DNA from: Escherichia phage V18
DNA: 64,000 nt
Sequence record: NC_041937.1
Direction: 5' to 3' (one strand)
The stretch's first letter is position 1, and the number at the start of each line of letters is the position of its first letter. The notes under the pieces are model-generated. The model did not search any database and was not told the origin of the DNA. It saw only the letters and a list, made by a program, of their open reading frames with translations. This document shows, in pieces, positions 4,104 to 60,873 of this stretch. The position numbers and the translations under genes are program-made.

Positions 4104-4660
4104 GAAAGAAAGCTGTCAAAGCCCCCGTTCATAACGGGTGGTTAAAAGATTCTAAGGACATAGCCAACTTTCGAAAAGAATTGTCAGAGGAGCAGGATGG
4201 TCTTGATCCGATCTTGTGCGAGCCACTTCGTAAGCCTTGTTTGGATCATGACCATCTAACTGGTCGTTGCAGGGGTGTTTTGTCACAATGCACTAATACC
4301 TTTGAGGGGTATGTGCTTAAATACTGGATGAAATACTGTAACGAGTATACAGATTGCAGTTTATCAGAGGCGTTGCGCCGGATGGCTGACTATTTGGAGA
4401 AAGACTACAGCGACTTCCCGCTCCACAAAAACTACAGAGATGATATGACAAAGTTCTTGAGGAGATGCTCTAAAGCTACGATCATTGCACGAGCAGAATC
4501 AGATCTCAATCTTGTCATTAATCCAGAGTGCACCAAGCATGAGGCTATTGAGTTCTACATGCAGGAGTTTATAAAGAAAACTGAGGAGAGAGATTTCTAT
4601 GGGGATGAAAAAGGTATTCAATCCTTGCGATTCAGTTCTGATCAGGATGAAATACCGTAA
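4055..4660 (+). CDS. endonuclease VII-like (T4 gp49 family) protein
   Basis: Motif CEPLRKPCLDHDHLTGRCRGVLSQCTN (C..C…DHDH.TG..RG.L..C.N). The start is a non-ATG codon overlapping the upstream gene, so the true start is uncertain. Confidence 0.55.
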   Translation: MDRQGASGGIIAKRKIRKKAVKAPVHNGWLKDSKDIANFRKELSEEQDGLDPILCEPLRKPCLDHDHLTGRCRGVLSQCTNTFEGYVLKYWMKYCNEYTDCSLSEALRRMADYLEKDYSDFPLHKNYRDDMTKFLRRCSKATIIARAESDLNLVINPECTKHEAIEFYMQEFIKKTEERDFYGDEKGIQSLRFSSDQDEIP

Positions 4661-9741: not shown

Positions 9742-9770
9742 TTGACTAATAGTATCAGATAATCTATAAT
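9742..9770 (+). promoter_or_regulatory. sigma70-like promoter
   Basis: TTGACT 9742-9747, 17 bp spacer, TATAAT 9765-9770. Confidence 0.5.
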
Positions 9771-9771
9771 A

Positions 9772-10272
9772 ATGGCTCACTTTGTTAGTGAGCCAGAAAT
9801 GGAGACAGATATGAGTAATGTTATGATTCCTAAAAAGACATTTATTTCAGTTACTTTGGATTTCCTATCTACCGTTCCAGGGTTTAACGTTCGCACACGA
9901 AACGGTCTCCGAGCTGCACTCTTTGCCGTAGGGTTTGATTTAAAAAGTATTGATGTTCTTCGTGGAAAAAACGTTCGATGCAAAAATAAGCCAACACATT
10001 ATCGAAAGGCAGATGTATTTGCTGGTGTCATGCGTGCAGACTTTAGATACCCGCAAATGTATAACGGTGTAGATATTTTAGATGTAGATAAAGCACCCGG
10101 TGAGGCAATGCTTGTTCAAGATCTTCCGTATGATATCCCTGTAGAGGATCGTGTTAATGTAAGAAAGTATACAAAACAATCTGAAAAGGCTGAAGATATT
10201 CATATTGTTGATGAACCTTTCAATTTTGAAGATCTGCATCGCCTGGAAAAATTATTCGGTATTGAAAGCTAA
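9772..10272 (+). CDS. hypothetical protein (true start probably at the internal ATG near 9811)
   Basis: The ORF ATG at 9772 lies 1 nt after the -10 box; GGAGA at 9802-9806 precedes the ATG at 9811. Confidence 0.35.
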   Translation: MAHFVSEPEMETDMSNVMIPKKTFISVTLDFLSTVPGFNVRTRNGLRAALFAVGFDLKSIDVLRGKNVRCKNKPTHYRKADVFAGVMRADFRYPQMYNGVDILDVDKAPGEAMLVQDLPYDIPVEDRVNVRKYTKQSEKAEDIHIVDEPFNFEDLHRLEKLFGIES

Positions 10273-25217: not shown

Positions 25218-25538
25218 ATGCAAATTGAAATCACTGGCAACAATGTAGAAATCACAGAAGGTATGGTATCTTTTATTTCCCGCAAAATGTCCAAGCTGGA
25301 GCGTTTACATCCCTCTGTCAACTATGCACGTGTGAGTGTAAAAGTTGAAAATGATCACCAGGAAGTTATGGCGTTCATTTTTGACAATTCTGGAAAAGAA
25401 GTTATTGCCAAAGCTAAAGGCAGTGATGCTTACGAGGCAACTGACCGTATGGTAGATGTTGCAGCACGTCAGCTGGCTAAATGCGGTGGAAAGAAAGGTA
25501 AGGGGAAAGGCAAAGTAAAGATTGACTTTGGAGAATGA
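25218..25538 (+). CDS. hypothetical protein with lysine/glycine-rich C-terminus
   Basis: 106 aa; MQIEITGNN…; C-terminal GGKKGKGKGKVK. Confidence 0.35.
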   Translation: MQIEITGNNVEITEGMVSFISRKMSKLERLHPSVNYARVSVKVENDHQEVMAFIFDNSGKEVIAKAKGSDAYEATDRMVDVAARQLAKCGGKKGKGKGKVKIDFGE

Positions 25539-25675
25539 GGTGCTACAATGGGTGTGATTAAGAAATTAGTCACAAATGTAGAGATTGCATGCTTTGAAAT
25601 TATGTTTGCAATCGCAGTTGTAGTTAATGTGTTAGGTTACGGCTATTAATATCAAATAATTGAGGAGACCTCTAA

Positions 25676-33790: not shown

Positions 33791-34945
33791 GGTGTTTTTA
33801 CCTCTTAGTTAATTTTCTTACAACTTCCCTTCAAAAAAGAATATAGCAAAACTGCCGATCCCTGTCAACCAAGGATGGCATAATTTTTATGTGATCAAGG
33901 GGCTTTATTGCCCCTGACCATGTAACTTGTTGTATTATTTGTTATTCATCCAGTTTTCCCAAGCTGCCTGATAATCTGCCTCACTGCGGCGGATCTCTTC
34001 TTGCTCTTCAAGCCGGATCTCTTCTTCCAGGTACCCCAAGATATCGGCTTTTTTGGTCTGGCGTAACATCCAATCATCTTTTTTACGGGTAAAGATCTTA
34101 TATGCTTTCTCGCAAACCTCTTTTTTGCTACCTTTTTGGACTTTAAGAACTTTGTAGGCCATGTACTGAACTAGTTTGAGCTGATCAAGACGTTTCATGA
34201 TGTTTACCTCTTTATGAGGTTCTGGTTTGGTGTGGGCCTTTTGGCCCGTGTCATTATCTTATTACTTACGGCGGCAAAATTCAAGTGTTTTTAATTGATA
34301 ATCTTCCTCAGCTTGGAGTACAACCGCTCGATCATTTCGTTGGCATTGGTGAAGCCATACCCTTGAGCGAACTCATCCGCGCCACCTTCGTGATCATGTT
34401 CTGCGTTCATCGCTTCCACAAAATGGAATTCAAGATTATTGAGGTAAGGGCTTGATGTTCCGTCCTCTTTTTCGATGAGATCCCAGATAGCATTAAAACG
34501 TGATTCAACTTCTTGATTAATCCAGCTTGACATAATGTTTTCCTCTCTTCTGGTTGTTGTGTGGGCACTTTTGCCCCTTCAAGATAAATAATATCCCACC
34601 ACCTGGCAGATGTCAACGGTTTTTATAGTTTTTATATAACAGGCACCCCCGGTGATTGTCTCCCCCCGTCGCCAGGTGCCACCCGTGAAACAAGTATAAC
34701 AAAAAACAGGACAAAAACAAGCCCTGTTTTGTAGATATAAGGATTATATTTTTTCGCCTATGTAGTCCGGCCTATTCTTTTCGGTCATACGCTTAAGCAT
34801 TTTTTGCAAAGAGTTAATATATAACACCAGATCGCTGACTACCAGGACAACATTAATCAGCACATACCTAACCATAAAGGGAAAGATCGCCAACATTGCC
34901 GCCACGATCCCCATGGTAATAATTACCTTTCTCATGGTTAGCGGT

Positions 34946-35642: not shown

Positions 35643-36326
35643 GGTGTTTATCCTCTTCCTGTTGCGTTTAATGGGGCGCTTGTCTCCCCTACTTATTATG
35701 TTTTAATCTTCTTGTTCCAGGTGGCGGACCATTCCACCGCCTTATGTATTATGCTTTGTAAGATGGTTGTTTGTTTTCAAACTATTTTAACGATAATCAT
35801 CGTACGCTTTATTAACCTGGCGAATATAACATTCAAAAGCCAGATCAATAGATTTATATTCACGGATATACTCACCATAGGAAACCACATACATTTCTAT
35901 AGCTTCCTCATATGCGAGGAGAGTAGAATCCAAGCCTACGATCTCAGTCTTTGCAATAATAGCCATGATTTTTATCCTCTTTGTGGTTGGTGGGCTTGCC
36001 CCTTTGATTTATATACTACAGTCTTATATGGTCATGTCAACTATTTTCAAAAAATTTTTCTGCCGTGATATTCTTCCCGGTGGGGTTCGCCACCTTCAAA
36101 ATTTTATCATGCACTGGACGCCCAAAAGAATAAGCGCCGTACGCAGTAAGCCAATAATCCCCGTCAGGCTGTACTATTACCGCCGCATATGGTACGCCTT
36201 TTTCGTTTTTGCTGACAAAATAGATCACATTGCCATTAATAGCCTCAGCGCGTTTAATTTGTTCCATCATGATGATTCACCTATCTTTATTTTTAATAGT
36301 TTCAGGCCTTTTTGGCCCCGCCAGGT

Positions 36327-37162: not shown

Positions 37163-37185
37163 TGATTATTTTAACAGGGTTTAAA

Positions 37186-37230
37186 TTTACTTTATTGATG
37201 GCCCTGGAGTCAAGGCCATCTAAAAATAAA
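37186..37230 (-). promoter_or_regulatory. repeated promoter/operator-like element, copy 1
   Basis: Inverted repeat GATGGCC…GGCCATC (37197-37203 / 37214-37220); minus-strand reading gives TTGACT-N18-TAAATT; upstream of 36845..37162. Confidence 0.4.
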
Positions 37231-37910
37231 TTTTACAGGCCTACAATCTCTTTATTCGTTTTACTGCTGCCTCAGCGCCTTGAGGGTAAAAATTATGGTA
37301 ACCAATCACGCGGGTAATACTGATCGCCGCCTGATGATCTTCATAATACCCCTTGAATATTTCTTGACCATCAACCAGCACAGCAATTTTTTCTTCTTTT
37401 TTGAAGTTAATAACGCGGATATTGTTGCTCATTTTGTTTCTCCTTTTGGAACTTTGTCTGTGTGGTGGGGAGTGTCTCCCCGTTGATTGTTATTATCCAT
37501 ATTCAGGACCGGATTGCAACACCCAGGGAGAAAAAATTTGAAAAGTTAGGCCCCAGGGATCGGGGCCGTTATCAGGCACGTACAGCGATAAAATACATCC
37601 CTACGCCTAACAATATTTCAAGGGCGATGATCTCCAGCCATACCATAACACGGCGCGCCTTATCGGTGCTGGGCTTATCCTTGGGTGTCATCGTCTCCCC
37701 CTTTCCTCCTGTTAGTAGTGACGTGGTTTGTAATGGTCCCCAGGAGTATTATCACCACGCACATTACAAGAAAAATTATCTCTGTCGTTGTTCGATCCAT
37801 TGTTATAAAACTCCTTAAGATCAGGCCTGAAAATAAAGCTTTCGTTATTGAATCCATCCCGCCAGGCGGCTGGCTTCAAATCTTCACTAAATGGATTAAT
37901 TAACGTGGTA

Positions 37911-38315: not shown

Positions 38316-39043
38316 TAAGGCGGCAAATATGCCGCCTGTTACCTGATTAAAAATTATCGCCGTAAAGCTTTCCGCTTTCTGCCCATACCACCACGCGAGG
38401 CATACTATCCCACACGTCTTGTTTTAGATTAACGCGTGCAATTCTTCGGTGGTGCTCATACCGGGCACGGGCTGATTGTATACTGCAAAACGACCGCCTG
38501 CATAATCATAGGCCAGGGTTAAATCACACTGGATCATCTTTTTGATCATGGCATTAAGCATGGCGTTAGCCGCATATTGATCACGTTTTAAAGGCAACTC
38601 TTTGATTAGTTTGCGATAGTTTTCGATATGGTCGCACACTGTTTCACGAGGAAGATCTTTCATATCCTCGCGAAAGGTAACCAGGTTAAACATAACGGTG
38701 TCAATAGCTTTGGTAGTGTTTTTCATGATGTTATCCTCTTTGTTTTGTGTGGGGCAAATCATCGCCCCCTTGAGTTTTAATATAGCAGGTTTTTAGGTTA
38801 TTGCAACACTTTATTTATGAAAAAGTCATCTCACCATATTCATCGACATCAAACCGCCAATCATTGGCCTCGATAAGGCCGATCAGGTTTTCTGCGGTGA
38901 ACTGTTCTAGATAGGCCTCCTCCAGGTCTACGTAAACCTTGCGGGATAGCTCCCGTACCGTCTCGGTGATCAGTTCTTCCAGTCTTCCACTTTGTTTTCT
39001 TGTTTGGCGGTCAGATCTAGCCAAGTGGTATCAATGTACCCGC

Positions 39044-39436
39044 TTACAGTGTTTTCATGGCTGTAATGGCTGTACTTGTCGCGTTCAACACTGGCTGATA
39101 ACTCGCATCGTGCATTGTGCCGAACAAGTGACGAATTGATCGGAACTTGGTCAGGGCCCTTACTTTACGCAAAAATTTTTCTAAATCCACGTTTTCAGCA
39201 CTGATTGAAGCGCCGTCACCCTGGCACCAAAAGCCGGACCAATGTACTTCGGTATCTTCAAGGCCGTACTCTGGAAAGATATATTCTTTGTAGTGTTCAA
39301 TTACACTTTCTGCAAAAAAGTCATCCCCGCTGCGTTCTTCTCTTTCGCGGACCATTTCAATGGCTTTTTCTTTTTGTTCGTCGGTCAGCACGTCGAAAGA
39401 TAAATTGCAACCTGTAGTAATGTTAACGGTAGTCAT
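39044..39436 (-). CDS. hypothetical protein
   Basis: 130 aa; conserved 5'-leader hairpin CGGGAAGTTTTCCCG at 39466-39480 and promoter-like TTGACA-N16-TATACT (minus) at about 39493-39522. Confidence 0.4.
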   Translation of the reverse strand: MTTVNITTGCNLSFDVLTDEQKEKAIEMVREREERSGDDFFAESVIEHYKEYIFPEYGLEDTEVHWSGFWCQGDGASISAENVDLEKFLRKVRALTKFRSIRHLFGTMHDASYQPVLNATSTAITAMKTL

Positions 39437-40625
39437 GATGTTTTCTCCTATTTTCTTTGTTAGTGGCGGGAAGTTTTCCCGTTTACGTGTTTAAGTATAC
39501 TTATCAAGATTTACTTGTCAACACTATTTTTTAAATTATTGTGGCGCAAAATGTTTAAAATCTCCTCAACGTCATCAACACGGCGGCAATTTTTAAACGC
39601 TACCAATTGCCCCATGATTTTAATCACTGGGCGGCCTTGCCAGTGCCCCTGGAGAAAGCGCGCCTTGACTTTATCGGTGGAACTATCACGCCACCAAATA
39701 GCCTTGTTGTTGCAGTAGTAAAAATTATTCAGGACAACATCAACTTTATCAAAATTTTTTAATTTACGCATGGCGTTTACTCCTTTCTCTCTTTGATGTG
39801 GTTAGTATAGCTAACCTGTTGACGATGTCAAGGTTAAATAAAAAACTGTCAATGATATTTTTAACGCCATAAAACGGCCCTAAGCGATGTTTTCAGGTTA
39901 AAGGGGGGGCGATTGCATAGGTGGGGCCTTTTTGGCGCTTACAGGGCCAACCAGGGGCGCTATTCGTAGGATAGAAATAAAAAGCCCCGCACAATGGCGG
40001 GGCGTTGGTTGTTATTTGTCTTTATGGCGGTATCGTTCTGCCTGTCGTTCACGTTCCAAAAGTAGGCCGGGCAATTTACGATCATAATGATTGCGCCAGA
40101 TCTTCCCAAACCTTTTTGGCTTATTCAGTTTATTGTTACGCTGGCGGCGTTCTGGCAGCTCTTCGGAATCATGAGGGCGCTTTACAATTTTCTCGAAATT
40201 AATTTTCATATATTCCCCCCTTGCTAACTTCAATATTGGCCTGAATAGCCGATACGGCGCTTTATAACTTCCTGATCTGTGTGGTCATATCCCCAAAAGT
40301 CTACGATTTTTGCGCCTCCAGCCTTTAGGCGGTATAGTGTTTCTTGCATCTTGTAAGCTGGGATCGGTCGCGGTGTTACCTGGTCGCCTCTCTCATCCTT
40401 GTACTTGATAATGTAGTCTTCGTTGTCGTTGAATGCCCAAAATGGGTATTCTGTGAGCGCGTTGCTATCTTTTTCGTTTTTAGATTGGATCTTGTTTACA
40501 ATTAAAGCCGTAGCAATAGCGCCAATGATAAAACTAGCCCCGCTAATCATGTACTTTCTCCTTTCATGGTGTTAATAAATTATCTTTATAGATGGCCCTG
40601 CAACCAGGACCACCGAAAAAACAGC

Positions 40626-40871
40626 TTATTTGACGATACCGACAAAACAGATCCCGCCTTCCCCTATATAGGCAATATCGGTAATTTTATAATTTGTCAA
40701 GATCTGCTTATTTAGTTCATTAATAAAATCGGTCATTGCGTTGGTGTAGTTGTCTTCCGTGTCTAAGGCATAATCCCAGGTGTACACCTTTTTACGTCCG
40801 AAGCCTTTTACCATGATACGGGCGCTTTTGGTGTTGGTAGGGGCATAATATTTGGTGATTAGTGCTGCCAT
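40626..40871 (-). CDS. hypothetical protein
   Basis: 81 aa; same RBS/start context as 36327..36611 (ATAGGAGTTAAAAnCATGGC). Confidence 0.4.
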   Translation of the reverse strand: MAALITKYYAPTNTKSARIMVKGFGRKKVYTWDYALDTEDNYTNAMTDFINELNKQILTNYKITDIAYIGEGGICFVGIVK

Positions 40872-40912
40872 GGTTTTAACTCCTATGCATTAGTTCAGTG
40901 TTAACAGTATAA

Positions 40913-40962
40913 AGTTTACTTTATTGATGGCCCTGGTGTCAAGGCCATCTAAAAATAAGCTT
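40913..40962 (-). promoter_or_regulatory. repeated promoter/operator-like element, copy 2
   Basis: Near-identical 50 bp to 41533-41582; GATGGCC/GGCCATC inverted repeat bracketing a TTGACA on the minus strand. Confidence 0.4.
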
Positions 40963-41301
40963 ACTCGTTTTCTTCCAGCTCCGCAAGCTCTTCTTTTGCT
41001 TCTTCCAACCCTGTCTGTAATTCCTGGTATTCTTCATCGTCCTCAATATCCAGCTGTCGATGTAGTCGCTAAATCCGCAGCGGTAAGCGATAGGATCTAG
41101 CTCCTTGAGGATACGCGACGGAAGAAAAGAAATGTTTCCGATCATAATTTCGCCGTAGATCTCGTCTAACCATTCATCATAGTTTTCGTCGTACTTGTCC
41201 TCGTCGATTTCAAAGTTATCGATCTTATTCTCAAGGTCTGCGATCTGTTTTTTCAGCGCGGCGATCTGCATGGCTTTTTCTGCGGCGGTCATAGTAGTCA
41301 T
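40939..41301 (-). CDS. hypothetical coiled-coil/acidic protein (C-terminal part possibly out of frame)
   Basis: 120 aa; N-terminal KKQIADLENKIDNFEIDEDKYDENYDEW; leader hairpin GGGAAGTTTTCCCG at 41328-41341. Confidence 0.35.
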   Translation of the reverse strand: MTTMTAAEKAMQIAALKKQIADLENKIDNFEIDEDKYDENYDEWLDEIYGEIMIGNISFLPSRILKELDPIAYRCGFSDYIDSWILRTMKNTRNYRQGWKKQKKSLRSWKKTSKLIFRWP

Positions 41302-41380
41302 GGTGTTTTTCTCCTTTTGTGTGTTCTGGGAAGTTTTCCCGTTTATGTGCTTATTATAGCGATTTAAGTTAGCTTGTCAA

Positions 41381-41500
41381 TTAAAAGTTTAAGAAAAATT
41401 TTGCGACACCGTTGGCGCTACCCATCAACATTTGCGCCAGGATGTACCCAATGATGCAAACGATGATGGTTACCTTTGTGTGCTGGCGTGTAGTGCTCAT
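41381..41500 (-). CDS. 39-aa hydrophobic peptide (putative)
   Basis: ATG (minus) at 41500 preceded by GGAGGC; MSTTRQHTKVTIIVCIIGYILAQMLMGSANGVAKFFLNF. Confidence 0.25.
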   Translation of the reverse strand: MSTTRQHTKVTIIVCIIGYILAQMLMGSANGVAKFFLNF

Positions 41501-41532
41501 CTTCAAGCCTCCTTTTTCGCTTAATTGAGATT

Positions 41533-41582
41533 AGTTTACTTTATTGATGGCCCTGGTGTCAAGGCCATCTAAAAATAAGCTT
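41533..41582 (-). promoter_or_regulatory. repeated promoter/operator-like element, copy 3
   Basis: Inverted repeat GATGGCC 41546-41552 / GGCCATC 41563-41569; upstream of the 41381..41500 peptide ORF. Confidence 0.4.
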
Positions 41583-42024
41583 AGTAAATTTTCAGTACTT
41601 TACCGTCCAACCTGTCAAGCTGGATCTCGATAGCTGCAGAAAACCTATTGTACACCACGTCGCCCATAGAATCCAACCAGTCTATGACGTTATACACTTG
41701 CTCTTTGTTCTTGCAGGTCCGGATCCGTTTCATGATGTAAGCCGGATCAATATTGGTACTCTCGTTGGGGCCTTTACCACCACCTGGAATGGCTTTAAGG
41801 TGCCTTTTGCGTTCATCTCACGCGCTTTTGCGGCGCGGTTGTTATATGTTACACAACGGCGGCAAATGTTGATCAAATGCATGTCAATAATTTTTTCATC
41901 GTTTGCCAACTCGTTCATGATGCGGCGTACGTTCTTATTCATGATCTTTTTCCTTTGTGCTGGCGGGAAACATTCCCGCCTTTTGTGTCTAGTTTACTTA
42001 AATTTTGCAGCGTGTCAATGATTT

Positions 42025-42423
42025 TTATTCGTGGGCGCATGTTACAATGTGCTTTTTATAACCCAGGTGGTCAGCAAGTGCCGACAAAAACTCTTCTTCG
42101 TAGATCCAGCCGTCGGCAGTGATCCCCATAGCATCTAATGCGCTTTCAAGTGCTGCGTTGGCTTTATCGTAACCGTGACCGCTCGCCTTGCCGCCAGTAT
42201 AACCGTACTTATTGTTCTTGTTGTCGTGAATCCAAAACACGCAGTAGTAAGTGTTCCCGCTGGCTGCGGCATAATACCGGATCTCAGCTACTTCGTGCAA
42301 ATTATTGTCATCGTCCAGGCCCACCAGATTATAAGCCTTGTAAAATCCACGATCACGGCGGCAGTTCTTAACATCAGAAAAAGAGAAGTTAGCATTATCA
42401 AAATTAAAGGTAGTGGTTTTCAT
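42025..42423 (-). CDS. hypothetical protein
   Basis: 132-aa ORF. Confidence 0.35.
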   Translation of the reverse strand: MKTTTFNFDNANFSFSDVKNCRRDRGFYKAYNLVGLDDDNNLHEVAEIRYYAAASGNTYYCVFWIHDNKNNKYGYTGGKASGHGYDKANAALESALDAMGITADGWIYEEEFLSALADHLGYKKHIVTCAHE

Positions 42424-43380: not shown

Positions 43381-43900
43381 TAATTAGCATGCTAATTACC
43401 TTCCGTAACAATTTCCTATAAAATAGTACCCCATAAAATATTCCCATATAGAAATTTTAAAAATCCATTTCTGAAAACGAAAAATCGATTTCGTTCCCAA
43501 AAATTTTAGACCTGGTGCTGGACCAATTTCAAGAAAATCCGATTCAGAAAACGAAAAACAGATCGAGTACCGAAAAATTTATCGAGAAAAATTTTCAGAA
43601 AATTCAATCTTTGAAACGAAAAACAGATCGAGTACTTGGAAAGCTGTGCCGCAACTTCAAGATAGTGGTTGGATTATTACCATAAAAGGTCAAGGGTAAG
43701 CGGAGGAAGTTCCCGTAGAAGGGTGTGAGCATGTGCGGGAAATCTGTAATGGTGATCTGGAATATGGTGCAAACGATAGGATGAGTGATTCATCTCGTCG
43801 TGCCTGCTCTGAAAAATCCATTTTAGTTTTCGATCCATTTTCTGATTTTCTAAGGATTTTAAAATATCCGGGCAGGTAAAATATCAAAAGGAGGAAATCC
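43381..43900. repeat. direct-repeat array and palindrome in non-coding DNA
   Basis: Perfect 16-bp palindrome AATTAGCATGCTAATT 43381-43396; GAAAACGAAAAA(C/T)(A/C)GAT(C/T)G units at 43472-43492, 43546-43569, 43612-43634; AAATCCATTTT recurring near 43460, 43802, 43883. Confidence 0.5.
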
Positions 43901-59170: not shown

Positions 59171-60470
59171 TTAAGGTCGGGGTAAGTTTGTAATAACGGA
59201 AGCCACCACCACCTTTCCAGTTTACAGACTTAGAAATACCACCTTGATCTTCGCCATCGATCACTTTTTCCAAGCGCGGAATAATATGGGTATGACAATG
59301 ATCACCTAGCTCGATTGAGATCCAACGTCTTTTCATCTTGTGAGCTACAGCAGCAGTAGTTCCCGAACCACCGAATGAATCCAATACCAAATCGCCTTCT
59401 CGCGTACACATTTCTAAAATCCGCTTCAAAAGAGCTTCTGGTTTTTTCCCATTTTTGAAACTGACGCCGCCTTCATTTGCTATTCCATTCCAACTAATGT
59501 CTGTCCAAACATCAGTTATTAGTTCCGCAGGTTGCATCTCACCGTCAATTTCCAAAAGTCTATTGGAGTAAAAGACCATTTGCCTACCATTTGCGATATA
59601 AAATCCTTCAACATCCTCATTTGGATGTACATAAACCTTATCCCTATCTTTCTTTGACTTCTCGATAGTTTCTTTTCTCTTTATTTTAGCACCACCACCA
59701 ATTGCAACAGATTGAAATACACGTTCTGCATTATCAGTTGCGAATTGTGCTAATTCATCATCGAATGTATCAGGCAGTTTTTTCTTGGCTTCTTTTGCAT
59801 CTTTATAACCATTGGCCTTTGCAAACGCATCGGCAATACCGCACCACGTCCAATTTTTATAATGGTCATCCGGGTTTAATAGGTATTTGTTATATCCTGT
59901 ATCATACCCTTTAGGTATATAGATTTTGTTAAGCGGTTTCTGGGTGCGATCTTTTGCATATACAAGCAAAAAGTTTGCTGTGGAGAAAACTGTGGCTCCT
60001 GTTGCCTTAAATCCCGAAGGGGAATTTGTGGTCATCGATATGGTATTTAACTGATTTGCACGACCAAAAATCTCGTCCATCAAAACTTTTAAATACGCCA
60101 TTTCGCAATCATCTAAGTGAACGAATATTACCCCATCATCACTTAGAAGATTACGAATTATTTCTAACCTATCCCTCATTAAGCCCAGCCAAATGGAATG
60201 CTCCAGGCTATCATCGTAGTGCTCAAAAGCCCTTCCGGTATTGAATGGTGGGTCTATGTAAACACACTTCACTTTGCCTGCATACTCTTGCTCTAGCGCC
60301 TTCAATGCTAATAAGTTATCTCCAAAAATCAGTTTATTATCAAAAATATCGTTTTCGGTCACTTTCTGGCTGTGGTAAGACTTGCTAGAATCCTCTAACA
60401 AAATGTGCGGCTCTAACTTTTTGCGCTCGTTTTTACCTATCCAGGTAAGTTCTAATTTGGTTTTGCTCAT
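59145..60470 (-). CDS. DNA methyltransferase, beta-class N6-adenine/N4-cytosine type
   Basis: 441 aa; catalytic VYIDPPFNTG upstream of the AdoMet motif VLDSFGGSGTTAAVA (beta-class order). Confidence 0.7.
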   Translation of the reverse strand: MSKTKLELTWIGKNERKKLEPHILLEDSSKSYHSQKVTENDIFDNKLIFGDNLLALKALEQEYAGKVKCVYIDPPFNTGRAFEHYDDSLEHSIWLGLMRDRLEIIRNLLSDDGVIFVHLDDCEMAYLKVLMDEIFGRANQLNTISMTTNSPSGFKATGATVFSTANFLLVYAKDRTQKPLNKIYIPKGYDTGYNKYLLNPDDHYKNWTWCGIADAFAKANGYKDAKEAKKKLPDTFDDELAQFATDNAERVFQSVAIGGGAKIKRKETIEKSKKDRDKVYVHPNEDVEGFYIANGRQMVFYSNRLLEIDGEMQPAELITDVWTDISWNGIANEGGVSFKNGKKPEALLKRILEMCTREGDLVLDSFGGSGTTAAVAHKMKRRWISIELGDHCHTHIIPRLEKVIDGEDQGGISKSVNWKGGGGFRYYKLTPTLIAKDKSDQ

Positions 60471-60531
60471 CGTTTGGTGCTCTCCTTAGTTTTTGTGGGG
60501 AGGAGTGCCTCCCCTTTATACTCACATCTTA

Positions 60532-60873
60532 CTACTCAAGGTCTTCAGAGTCAAGCTCAAAAAGAATCAAACTGTGCATGCCTGCAGAGAGATTAACACA
60601 CCCTGCAACAATAAGGGTTTGATAGTAAGGTTCAGCACCCTCAATGTCTTCGTTAAAATCCACAACAAGGTAGTCACCTTTGTTAAAGGTGTATTTGTCC
60701 GATGTAAACGCAAAACCTGCCCAGTCCCCTACTGCAGGATCTTTATCAGTCACCTTTGTTAGCAGTAGATCTTTTTCACGAGATCTTTTAGTAAAATCGT
60801 GAATCACAACATCCTTCTCTTCAGGAGTCGGATTGCCACACACGTAGTTAACGATATTTCTCCACAAACTCAT
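60532..60873 (-). CDS. hypothetical protein
   Basis: 113-aa ORF. Confidence 0.35.
   Translation of the reverse strand: MSLWRNIVNYVCGNPTPEEKDVVIHDFTKRSREKDLLLTKVTDKDPAVGDWAGFAFTSDKYTFNKGDYLVVDFNEDIEGAEPYYQTLIVAGCVNLSAGMHSLILFELDSEDLE

Follow-up and report, generated by a model that had tools for sequence, protein, structure and literature searches.

Three genes on the minus strand of Escherichia phage V18 (NC_041937.1), starting at 39436, 41301 and 41942 of the 64-kb stretch (64,000 nucleotides) analysed here and called the window, are each preceded by a short inverted repeat, and the locus raises the question of what a hairpin set between an early promoter and its gene might be for. The phage is an rV5-like Vequintavirus. 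A preliminary description of the sequence had taken the repeats for conserved hairpins of 5' leaders, possibly serving as processing sites or as translational operators. All three repeats are present on the coding (minus) strand, the three starts are real ORF starts, and the hairpins are indeed conserved elements within predicted 5' leaders of early genes, directly 3' of sigma-70 promoters (Table 1). The coordinates were correct for site 3, one position off for site 1 (39467-39481 and not 39466-39480) and had to be set to 41328-41340 for site 2. The distance from hairpin to ribosome-binding site, previously put at 20-25 nt, is shorter: counted from the hairpin end to the Shine-Dalgarno sequence it is 18, 13 and 6 nt at sites 1, 2 and 3 (30, 26 and 19 nt to the ATG). 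Promoter-like sequences had been noticed in front of the first two genes; they exist, but are not restricted to these, site 3 having one as well.

Table 1. Promoters, leader hairpins and translation starts at the six hairpin-bearing sites of the window (in the sequence column, a number between two boxes is the spacer length in nt)
Site	Feature	Coordinates	Strand	Sequence and remarks
1	Promoter	39494-39521	minus	TTGACA (39516-39521), 16-nt spacer, TATACT (39494-39499)
1	Leader hairpin	39467-39481	minus	CGGGAAAACTTCCCG = CGGGAA-AAC-TTCCCG, 12 nt past the -10 box
1	Shine-Dalgarno and start	39434-39448	minus	GGAG (39445-39448), ATG (39434-39436); phrog_5162-family gene
2	Promoter	41353-41380	minus	TTGACA-16-TATAAT, 12/12 match
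2	Leader hairpin	41328-41340	minus	GGGAAAACTTCCC = GGGAA-AAC-TTCCC, 12 nt past the -10 box
2	Shine-Dalgarno and start	41299-41314	minus	GGAG (41311-41314), ATG (41299-41301); 120-aa phrog_9294 gene
3	Promoter	41991-42018	minus	TTGACA-16-TAAACT
3	Leader hairpin	41962-41980	minus	GGCGGGAATGTTTCCCGCC = GGCGGGAA-TGT-TTCCCGCC, 8 bp, 10 nt past the -10 box
3	Shine-Dalgarno and start	41940-41955	minus	AAGGA (41951-41955), ATG (41940-41942); phrog_13245 gene
4	Promoter, hairpin and leader	60497-60554	minus	TTGACT-17-TAAGAT, 11-nt gap, hairpin GGGGAGG-CACT-CCTCCCC (60497-60514), leader ACAAAAACTAAGGAG
5	Promoter, hairpin and leader	34563-34616	minus	TTGACA-17-TATTAT, 11-nt gap, hairpin GGGCA-AAAG-TGCCC (34563-34576), CA-rich leader
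6	Promoter and hairpin (weak member)	35992-36040	minus	TTGACA-16-TAGTAT, 10-nt gap, then GGGGCAAGCCC

Sites 1-3 are paralogous. Sites 1 and 2 form a 38-nt direct repeat with 82% identity (repeat family D3), one exact 13-mer is found twice, and the core CGGGAA..TTCCCG is common to the three sites and to a fourth copy, GCGGGAA-TAC-TTCCCGC, which phage C12 carries. The -35 box of site 1 showed no variation in any relative examined, and the promoter of site 2 equals P192, an annotated promoter of phage V5. In most relatives the site 1 stem has 8 bp (GGCGGGAA-AAC-TTCCCGCC, corresponding to 39465-39483); the presence of AA in place of GG cuts it to 6 bp in the window. The site 2 hairpin has the same sequence in 10 related loci. 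Folded in isolation, site 3 gives a strong hairpin, with -14.6 kcal/mol and a z of -3.9; the hairpins at sites 1 and 2 are weak, with -7.5 and -5.5 kcal/mol and a z of about -1.7.

PHROGs places the genes behind the hairpins only in families of unknown function, and the single Pfam match, GvpG for the site 2 protein, is below threshold, scoring 18.7 bits where 30.6 are required; no confirmation was obtained for the 'YeeU-like antitoxin' label carried by the homologue in Klebsiella phage K64-1. Relative to phage V5, the window's site 1 gene is truncated (V5 gp180) and its site 3 gene is split by a frameshift (V5 gp189). Of the loci that IMG/VR gave for the protein downstream of site 2, just L001 was a close relative; the remaining 38 were distant homologues of that protein and of no use for the leader.

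Three further minus-strand promoters of the window bear hairpins at the same offset, with unrelated stem sequences (sites 4-6 in Table 1). The stems of the window thus include GGGAA/TTCCC, GGCGGGAA/TTCCCGCC, GGGGAGG/CCTCCCC and GGGCA/TGCCC, and the weak site 6 has in relatives a stronger 5-bp stem, GGGGC-AACAA-GCCCC. At the position matching site 4, phage Aya carries yet another hairpin, GAAGGGTA-GGTC-TACTCTTC. A mosaic junction coincides with the site 4 cassette: in phage EI-SP-GF the hairpin and leader of the window stand in front of another gene, and Aya is unlike the window on both sides. The window also holds a second cassette type (family D1), where a hairpin embraces the -35 box.

What the hairpins have in common is their distance from the promoter. 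The stem starts 10-12 nt past the -10 box at all six sites, which for sites 1-3 puts it at about +4 to +6 if transcription starts where predicted. Most of the minus-strand promoter-like sites in the window are without a hairpin; a perfect one of at least 5 bp, exactly 10-12 nt past the -10 box, is found at 4 of 33 such sites against about 0.17 expected from the hairpin density (108 per strand), the four matches amounting to fewer than four independent events because sites 1-3 are paralogous. When hairpin starts are plotted relative to promoters, a sharp peak appears at 10-12 nt on the early (minus) strand and none on the plus strand. In IMG/VR, GGGGAG opens a hairpin 26 times out of 116 when it lies 10-13 nt past a consensus promoter and 7 times out of 88 when it lies at 40-43 nt; this last control is biased, since many copies of GGGGAG at +45 are Shine-Dalgarno sequences under selection to stay unpaired. 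The significance of the hairpins lies in their position. On their 3' side, no U-tract (sense-strand T-tract) follows any of them (the tails read CCACTAAC, AGAACACA, AGCACAAA, ACAAAAAC and ACACAACA), and the CA-rich leaders that come next have no predicted structure.

Comparison of orthologues indicates which parts of the hairpins are free to vary. The loop alternates between AAC, CAC and CAA at site 1 and between TGT, ACA, AACA and ATGTC at site 3; over 8-11 orthologues, 47% of the loop columns are variable versus 18% of the stem columns (Fisher P = 0.023). Only this stem-loop contrast is significant, the stems being no more conserved than the other non-coding columns (18% versus 21% variable). 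Folding is nevertheless retained in nearly every orthologue variant: site 3 of phage Aya has more than five changes and still reaches -14.3 kcal/mol, and the exception noted is phage C7, where a C to A change breaks the site 1 stem. The non-Watson-Crick pairs are of the G.U type on the sense strand (four cases) and never of the A.C type. Two observations were set aside. Site 1 looks 'missing' from typing phage 14, as the result not of a deletion but of an assembly gap that ends inside the hairpin; and the richness in G of the 5' arm and in C of the 3' arm does not testify to selection on one strand, since a perfect inverted repeat reads alike on both.

The same layout was found in other phage genera. 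In the terminal repeat of the Asteriusvirus vB_Ec-M-J, 7 of 28 promoters are followed by 8-9 bp hairpins with differing loops, 12 nt past TATAAT (14 nt at one of them), and this unrelated phage holds a near-identical cassette; exact TTGACA-16-TATAAT occurs in 7 of 8 hairpin-bearing members when the Asteriusvirus locus and site 2 are taken together. Orthologues of the site 1 gene are preceded by GGCG..CGCC in Av-05 and 18-1-2 (Avunavirus), by GGAGATTCCA..TGGAATCTCC in Klebsiella phage K64-1 and by GGGTAAGC..GCTTACCC in Serratia phage BF, always starting 10-14 nt past the -10 box. No leader hairpin was found in front of the orthologues of 121Q and 7t3; this, together with its absence from many promoters, means that the element is dispensable. 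One and the same offset is occupied by at least nine mutually unrelated stem sequences when four other genera are added to the window and its relatives. A hairpin right after strong early promoters is a wider habit of large virulent enterobacterial phages, and one apparently undescribed: we found no description, in the literature searched, of such a layout recurring with unrelated stems across genera, and a preprint on the transcriptome of the jumbo phage PA5oct describes promoters and terminators and no 5' hairpins.

The reading that we favour, and to which we give an even chance, is that the hairpin is a sequence-independent 5'-proximal stem-loop which stabilises or insulates early mRNAs in the manner of that of ompA, within a portable promoter-hairpin-leader cassette. 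Host sigma-70 RNA polymerase would make the early mRNA from a promoter at or near consensus, with the purine of the CA/CG step conserved 6-8 nt past the -10 box as the probable start, and the hairpin would be the first structured element of the transcript. The predicted order is 3-7 unpaired, A-rich nucleotides, a GC-rich stem of 5-8 bp with a variable loop of 3-6 nt, and the unstructured CA-rich leader ending with the Shine-Dalgarno sequence and the start codon. Acting by its structure and position and not by its sequence, a hairpin located beside the 5' end would hinder the successive steps of 5'-end-dependent decay, i.e. removal of pyrophosphate by RppH, docking in the sensor pocket of RNase E and the linear scanning that this enzyme performs. 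The hairpin may also spare the leader and the ribosome-binding site from context-dependent pairing. The outcome would be stable and reproducible expression of early genes. Promoter, hairpin and leader would move as one cassette of about 100 nt, which, judging from the sequences, appears to have been duplicated in this genome (sites 1 and 2) and to be common to unrelated phage genera.

This proposal has precedents. The leader of gene 10 of phage T7 starts with a hairpin. The stem-loops in the 5' UTRs of ompA and papA resemble those of the window in that each is a short GC-rich hairpin placed, in the phage by prediction, where the transcript begins, with an unstructured leader and a strong ribosome-binding site behind it; there, structure and position count and not sequence, and the window hairpins match through their free variation in stem and loop. 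A point of difference is the predicted unpaired 5' segment. The ompA-type effect, according to Emory, Bouvet and Belasco in 1992, reportedly requires no more than about 2-4 unpaired nucleotides, and the 3-7 left here by a start 6-8 nt past the -10 box are at or over this limit, so that some members may sit too far from the 5' end. Another is that ompA and papA have the hairpin as a feature of a single gene, whereas in the phages it is part of a cassette repeated in front of many early genes and in several genera. RppH and RNase E require single-stranded 5' ends, hence the long-known stabilisation by 5' secondary structure, and denial of such an end is the mechanism at ompA and papA (PMC3997798); we infer by analogy a comparable role for the phage hairpins. 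Obstacles are also known to impede the scanning of RNase E from the 5' end (PMC7509114). Shielding would be of particular use if the phage accelerates decay: the Srd protein of T4 stimulates RNase E on host mRNA (PMC4980113) and a probable homologue, gp11, has been reported in rV5 (PMC3606486), so that a gp11 acting on host mRNA like Srd would provide a selective reason to protect the mRNAs of the phage. In the literature we found no mapped transcription start site, RNA end, half-life or RNA-seq for any Vequintavirus.

Could selection act on the DNA instead, the RNA hairpin being a by-product? The repeats are perfect palindromes, as expected of an operator for a dimeric repressor; alternatively they might be recombination hot-spots which, like the PeSLs of T4-type phages, shuffle promoter cassettes. 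The latter would fit the place of the site 4 cassette, exactly at the mosaic junction with EI-SP-GF and Aya, the near-identical cassette of Asteriusvirus and the gap of typing phage 14 that ends within a hairpin. PeSLs also associate a strong sigma-70-like early promoter with a G-run/C-run stem-loop (GGGG..CCCC stems, as here) ahead of small genes without known function (PMC2839356, PMC4122927), and are likewise present in many copies in the early region, to be compared with at least one copy (site 4) at a mosaic junction in our case. However, in PeSLs the stem-loop immediately precedes the promoter and, defined as a terminator or attenuator, has been shown to end transcription (PMC2839356, PMC4122927), whereas here the hairpin is 3' of the -10 box, within the transcript and without a U-tract; the family D1 cassette, with its hairpin around the -35 box, is closer to PeSLs than the hairpin-leader cassette is. 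The operator of a single repressor would need a conserved half-site and the stems are wholly different between sites, while the shared promoter and leader suffice for homologous recombination, which calls for no palindrome at a fixed distance from the -10 box. The sense-strand count of four G.T against zero A.C is an asymmetry expected of RNA and not of DNA, only suggestive with four cases. Selection at the level of DNA is in our opinion unlikely.

We hold it to be similarly unlikely that a specific trans-acting factor binds or cuts the hairpins, be it an RNA-binding protein of phage or host working through a translational operator, an antitermination factor of the N/boxB type or a processing endoribonuclease. 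The core common to sites 1-3 and the C12 copy could be the target of such a factor, and the downstream genes, all early and of unknown function, could be co-regulated; that core, however, is accounted for by duplication of a cassette (family D3), and loops differ freely among orthologues and paralogues (AAC, CAC, CAA, TGT, ACA, AACA, TAC), while unrelated stems occupy the equal offset in other promoters and genera. The known translational operators (MS2 coat, T4 gp43, RegA) overlap or abut the Shine-Dalgarno sequence or the start codon and have conserved recognition bases; the hairpins do neither, leaving the AUG free and the Shine-Dalgarno sequence uncovered 6-18 nt beyond their 3' end. As for processing, stems of 5-8 bp are far below the extended duplex of about two helical turns typical of RNase III sites such as those of the T7 early region, and equivalent hairpins elsewhere have unrelated stems. 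Processing site and translational operator, the two roles initially put forward, are accordingly not favoured. The boxB of the lambda nut sites is, like the put sites of HK022, a small hairpin shortly 3' of early promoters in a phage that uses host RNA polymerase, but its purine-rich pentaloop is conserved, unlike the 3-6 nt loops found here (AAC, AAC and TGT at sites 1-3), and no boxA (CGCTCTTA, up to one mismatch), which in nut sites stands a few nucleotides before the hairpin, was found on the minus strand near any site. Rfam 15 gave no match at the gathering threshold over the whole window; at E ≤ 1, the region 39300-42100 had two chance-level matches, both at the 40.0-kb terminator and none at the hairpins. 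The chances are just as low for a broader version, where the cassette is a distinct, horizontally mobile early-expression unit of Vequintavirinae and of Rak2-like jumbo phages (Asteriusvirus, Alcyoneusvirus, Eneladusvirus), and where the hairpin is the handle of a shared trans-acting system (for example for discrimination of phage from host mRNA under accelerated host decay, or for the timing of early shut-off) or the crossover point that moves early genes.

A role in transcription itself, the nascent hairpin setting or suppressing a promoter-proximal pause about 30 nt into the transcript, helping escape or conferring put-like resistance to termination, would explain the strict spacing from the -10 box and why the hairpins go with consensus or near-consensus promoters; if the hairpin ends at about +20 to +25, a pause that depends on it could fall close to the Shine-Dalgarno sequence or the AUG. 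HK022 put, on the other hand, needs two stem-loops over about 70 nt, where the phage leader has a single short hairpin without an Rfam match; the initial transcribed region is without a -10-like pause element having T at position 6, and length and stability vary widely from hairpin to hairpin (-5.5 to -14.6 kcal/mol). We consider such a role quite improbable, and likewise the opposite view that nothing is selected, i.e. that a promoter cassette with a chance palindrome was duplicated and inherited. Paralogy of sites 1-3, weakness of hairpins 1 and 2, stems no more conserved than the neighbouring non-coding sequence and lack of a hairpin at many promoters all go in the direction of this last view. 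It is weakened by the enrichment at offset 10-12, by the independent stems placed at an equal offset at sites 4-6 and in Asteriusvirus, Avunavirus, K64-1 and Serratia BF, and by strongly diverged orthologues which still fold, such as site 3 of Aya.

Finally, it is very hard to believe that the hairpins are intrinsic terminators of antisense (plus-strand) transcription shielding early promoters from convergent polymerases, even if site 3 reads GGCGGGAAACATTCCCGCC TTTTGTGT on the plus strand, a simple scan lists sites 2 and 3 as terminator-like, the annotation of phage Alma (OV101294) labels those of sites 1 and 3 'terminator' and the authors of the rV5 paper, expecting a bidirectional terminator to separate genes 163 and 164, found none: the plus-strand tail is mostly poor or absent (it reads TGTGTGTTT for site 1 of most relatives, CTTCAAG for site 5 and TTGATGTAA in all Asteriusvirus members), with TTTT only at site 3 and two or three T, or none, in most members, the true terminators of the region have GC stems of 7-9 bp and T5 tracts (e.g. 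40003-39984 and 47249-47228), G.U pairs become A.C mismatches in the antisense RNA, and the constant distance to the -10 box on the sense strand is left unexplained. Rho-independent terminators do share with the hairpins a GC-rich intergenic stem-loop, but they follow a stop codon and not a promoter; here there is no U-tract toward the genes, and one on the opposite strand at some members only.

One practical consequence is that the 'terminator' label given to these hairpins in at least one public genome is an annotation error. That several genera of large phages of enterobacteria share one layout, with stems that are unrelated, constitutes a testable regularity. If the hairpins prove to stabilise or insulate early transcripts, the promoter, 5' hairpin and leader would make a compact natural part for expression design. 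For the phages themselves, hairpins that stabilise or insulate early transcripts would be one route to reliable early expression from the host polymerase, especially useful under stimulated decay of host mRNA if the Srd-like gp11 acts like T4 Srd.

The three inverted repeats reported in the preliminary description as leader hairpins are all present on the coding strand, site 3 exactly where it had been placed and site 1 displaced by one base (see the table). A TTGACA-16-TAxAxT promoter precedes each of them; it had rightly been noticed at the first two sites but was overlooked at site 3. The hairpins end 18, 13 and 6 nt upstream of the Shine-Dalgarno sequence at sites 1, 2 and 3, respectively, not 20-25 nt from the ribosome-binding sites as first estimated. 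If the start site is taken at the conserved pyrimidine-purine step found 6-8 nt past the -10 box, they would start around position +4 to +6 of the predicted transcript. Sites 1 and 2 constitute a 38-nt repeat (82% identical), and their whole cassettes, i.e. promoter, hairpin and leader, can be aligned from the A-rich upstream region through to the ATG. As lone hairpins, sites 1 and 2 are unremarkable (z ~ -1.7 versus shuffles) and site 3 is strong (z -3.9).

When all promoter-like sites of the window were scanned for hairpins at the matching offset, three more minus-strand promoters emerged (sites 4 to 6, the last one weak), with unrelated stems. Plotted by distance from the -10 box, the hairpin starts peaked sharply at 10-12 nt for the minus strand (4 promoters out of 33, for ~0.17 expected); this peak was absent for the plus-strand promoters. 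Two plus-strand promoter-like sites have inverted repeats: an 8-bp hairpin (GGCTCACT..AGTGAGCC) only 3 nt past TATAAT at 9742-9810, and an imperfect repeat past the -10 box at 25522-25580 (TGTGATTAA-GAAA-TTAGTCACA), which could be an operator. At 43460-43645, where no convincing ORF was found, a 47-nt repeat occurs three times (identities of 62-100%, spacings of 74 and 65 nt). Each copy can fold into a long, imperfect hairpin (GGGAACGAAATCGATTTTTCGTTTTC), and the array might represent iterons or the locus of a non-coding RNA.

Hairpins and promoter cassettes of the window, and hairpins upstream of the site-1 gene homologue in other phages
Feature	Hairpin	Coordinates	Strand	Start past -10 box (nt)
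Site 1	CGGGAAAACTTCCCG	39467-39481	-	12
Site 2	GGGAAAACTTCCC	41328-41340	-	12
Site 3	GGCGGGAATGTTTCCCGCC	41962-41980	-	10
Site 4	GGGGAGG-CACT-CCTCCCC	60497-60514	-	
Site 5	GGGCA-AAAG-TGCCC	34563-34576	-	
Site 6 (weak)	GGGGCAAGCCC	35992-36002	-	
PeSL-like 51-nt cassette		37184-37234	-	
PeSL-like 51-nt cassette		40578-40628	-	
PeSL-like 51-nt cassette		40913-40963	-	
PeSL-like 51-nt cassette		41533-41583	-	
Av-05 and 18-1-2 (Avunavirus)	GGCG-ATACAC-CGCC			11
Klebsiella K64-1	GGAGATTCCA-GAATAA-TGGAATCTCC			14
Serratia BF	GGGTAAGC-AATACC-GCTTACCC			10

The 3.6-kb stretch around sites 1-3 shares 93-96% identity with over 100 rV5-like E. coli phages (genus Vequintavirus), some of whose records are misnamed 'Campylobacter phage'. 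It is a minus-strand early unit with many small genes of unassigned function, each behind a sigma-70-type promoter; host-type promoters were predicted all along it in the rV5 genome paper (PMC3606486), and that of site 2 is annotated as P192 (rV5/V5). The genes after site 1 (38815-39436, minus strand; phrog_5162, 201-aa profile) and site 3 (41581-41942, minus strand; phrog_13245, 131-aa profile) are both split into two ORFs and are intact in V5 (gp180, 207 aa, and gp189, 134 aa), as a result of either true frameshifts or sequencing errors in the V18 genome. The K64-1 homologue of the site-1 gene (locus L292, 212-823) is annotated 'YeeU-like antitoxin', a label for which Pfam gave no backing when the orthologous V5 protein was searched.

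The conservation initially proposed was borne out, every site being kept in ten related genomes. At site 1 the relatives normally have an 8-bp stem, GGCGGGAA-AAC-TTCCCGCC, which is also that of site 3 and is shortened in the window copy. Changes cluster in the loops (AAC/CAC/CAA; TGT/ACA/AACA/ATGTC; CACT/CCT; AAAG/AAGG), with 47% variable columns versus 18% in the stems (p = 0.023), stem conservation not being above that of the surrounding non-coding sequence. Nearly all variants keep the folding; a disrupting change occurs in one relative. Read on the sense strand, the imperfect pairs comprise four G.U and no A.C, which hints that selection acts on the sense RNA. In typing phage 14 (E. coli O157; KP869112; L050 4274-4546), an N run ends within the site-1 hairpin, which suggests an assembly break caused by the repeated cassette.

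The same layout is found in other genera. The site-1 cassette gave a BLAST match within the terminal repeat of vB_Ec-M-J, a jumbo phage (Asteriusvirus). There, 7 of 28 promoter-like sites precede an 8-9 bp hairpin whose loop varies, and a CA-rich leader comes next. The promoters of these seven are exact TTGACA-16-TATAAT (six) or TGGACA-16-TATAAT (one), and the distance from the -10 box to the start of the hairpin is 12 nt in six cases and 14 nt in the remaining one. This direct repeat (OQ718158, L051 1-22000), 21.5 kb long and dense with small genes after consensus promoters, has a second recurrent leader motif, GCCCA-YAG-GGGTGC, after several TTGACT-17-TATTAT promoters. Several other genera possess homologues of the site-1 gene, and inspection of the regions upstream of these homologues revealed the hairpins listed in the table and none in 121Q and 7t3. 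A crude scan of IMG/VR points the same way: GGGGAG located 10-13 nt past a consensus promoter began a hairpin in 26 cases out of 116, against 7 out of 88 at 40-43 nt, a biased control as the distal GGGGAG frequently serves as a ribosome-binding site. The initial observation holds and reaches well past three sites.

The site-4 cassette (60400-60640; L047 480-720 and L048 1755-1995 in other phages) is a junction between neighbouring genes that differ among phages: the gene after the ATG is not the same in the window and ECO111 5-P as in EI-SP-GF and Aya, the cassette being common to them. Aya also departs upstream of the cassette, and has a different hairpin at this position. Such a mosaic junction, and a cassette common to different genera, would suit a DNA-level role (operator or recombination site), which we nevertheless consider unlikely since it explains neither the fixed offset nor the G.U bias. 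A role in transcription, by pausing or escape, appears slightly less probable still. That the hairpins are antisense terminators is very improbable: two are so labelled in the Alma genome annotation and the plus strand has TTTT at site 3, but in most members neither strand offers a usable T-tract. The labels in vB_Eco_Alma (OV101294, L041; site-3 hairpin at 1915-1939, site-1 hairpin at 4430-4451), with no U-tract following in the gene direction, are probably automatic mis-annotations. The specific operator or processing site originally envisaged is disfavoured, for the loops vary, equivalent sites use unrelated stems, the hairpins stand off from the Shine-Dalgarno sequence, the stems are short, and both boxA and Rfam matches are absent.

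The conserved traits are proximity to the predicted 5' end, a stem that is rich in GC but not fixed in sequence, a loop that is free to vary, and an unstructured CA-rich leader devoid of U-tract. This combination is the hallmark of structure-only 5'-proximal stem-loops, for which protection from 5'-end-dependent decay is the mechanism established in E. coli. We propose, with about an even chance of being right, that the hairpins protect early mRNA in this way; the transcription start site, folding in vivo and any effect on half-life are inferred. In function, the nearest counterparts are the 5' stem-loop of ompA/papA and the hairpin with which the leader of T7 gene 10 begins; in ompA, 3-7 unpaired 5' nt, as predicted here, are at the edge of the effective range. 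In architecture, the nearest counterpart is the PeSL cassette of T4-type phages, whose stem-loop lies upstream of the promoter and works as a terminator (PMC2839356, PMC4122927). A PeSL-like family, the second type of promoter cassette in this early region, exists in the window: a 51-nt intergenic cassette in four copies (two 100% identical), with a 7-8 bp hairpin (GATGGCC..GGCCATC) whose loop holds the -35 box (TTGACA) of a TTGACA-18-TAAACT promoter, and a T-run before, not after, the hairpin.

By its position, a 5'-proximal stem would deny RppH and the RNase E 5' sensor the single-stranded end that they require (PMC3997798) and could, as other obstacles do, block RNase E scanning (PMC7509114). 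T4 Srd boosts the activity of RNase E on host mRNA (PMC4980113), and a probable homologue of Srd has been reported in rV5, namely gp11 (PMC3606486), whose gene lies outside the window; a Srd-like gp11 is a plausible selective context for mRNA protection. To conclude, the hairpin element, uncharacterised so far, belongs to a known kind of element, and is better interpreted as a 5'-end stem-loop within a portable early-promoter cassette than as an operator or processing site.
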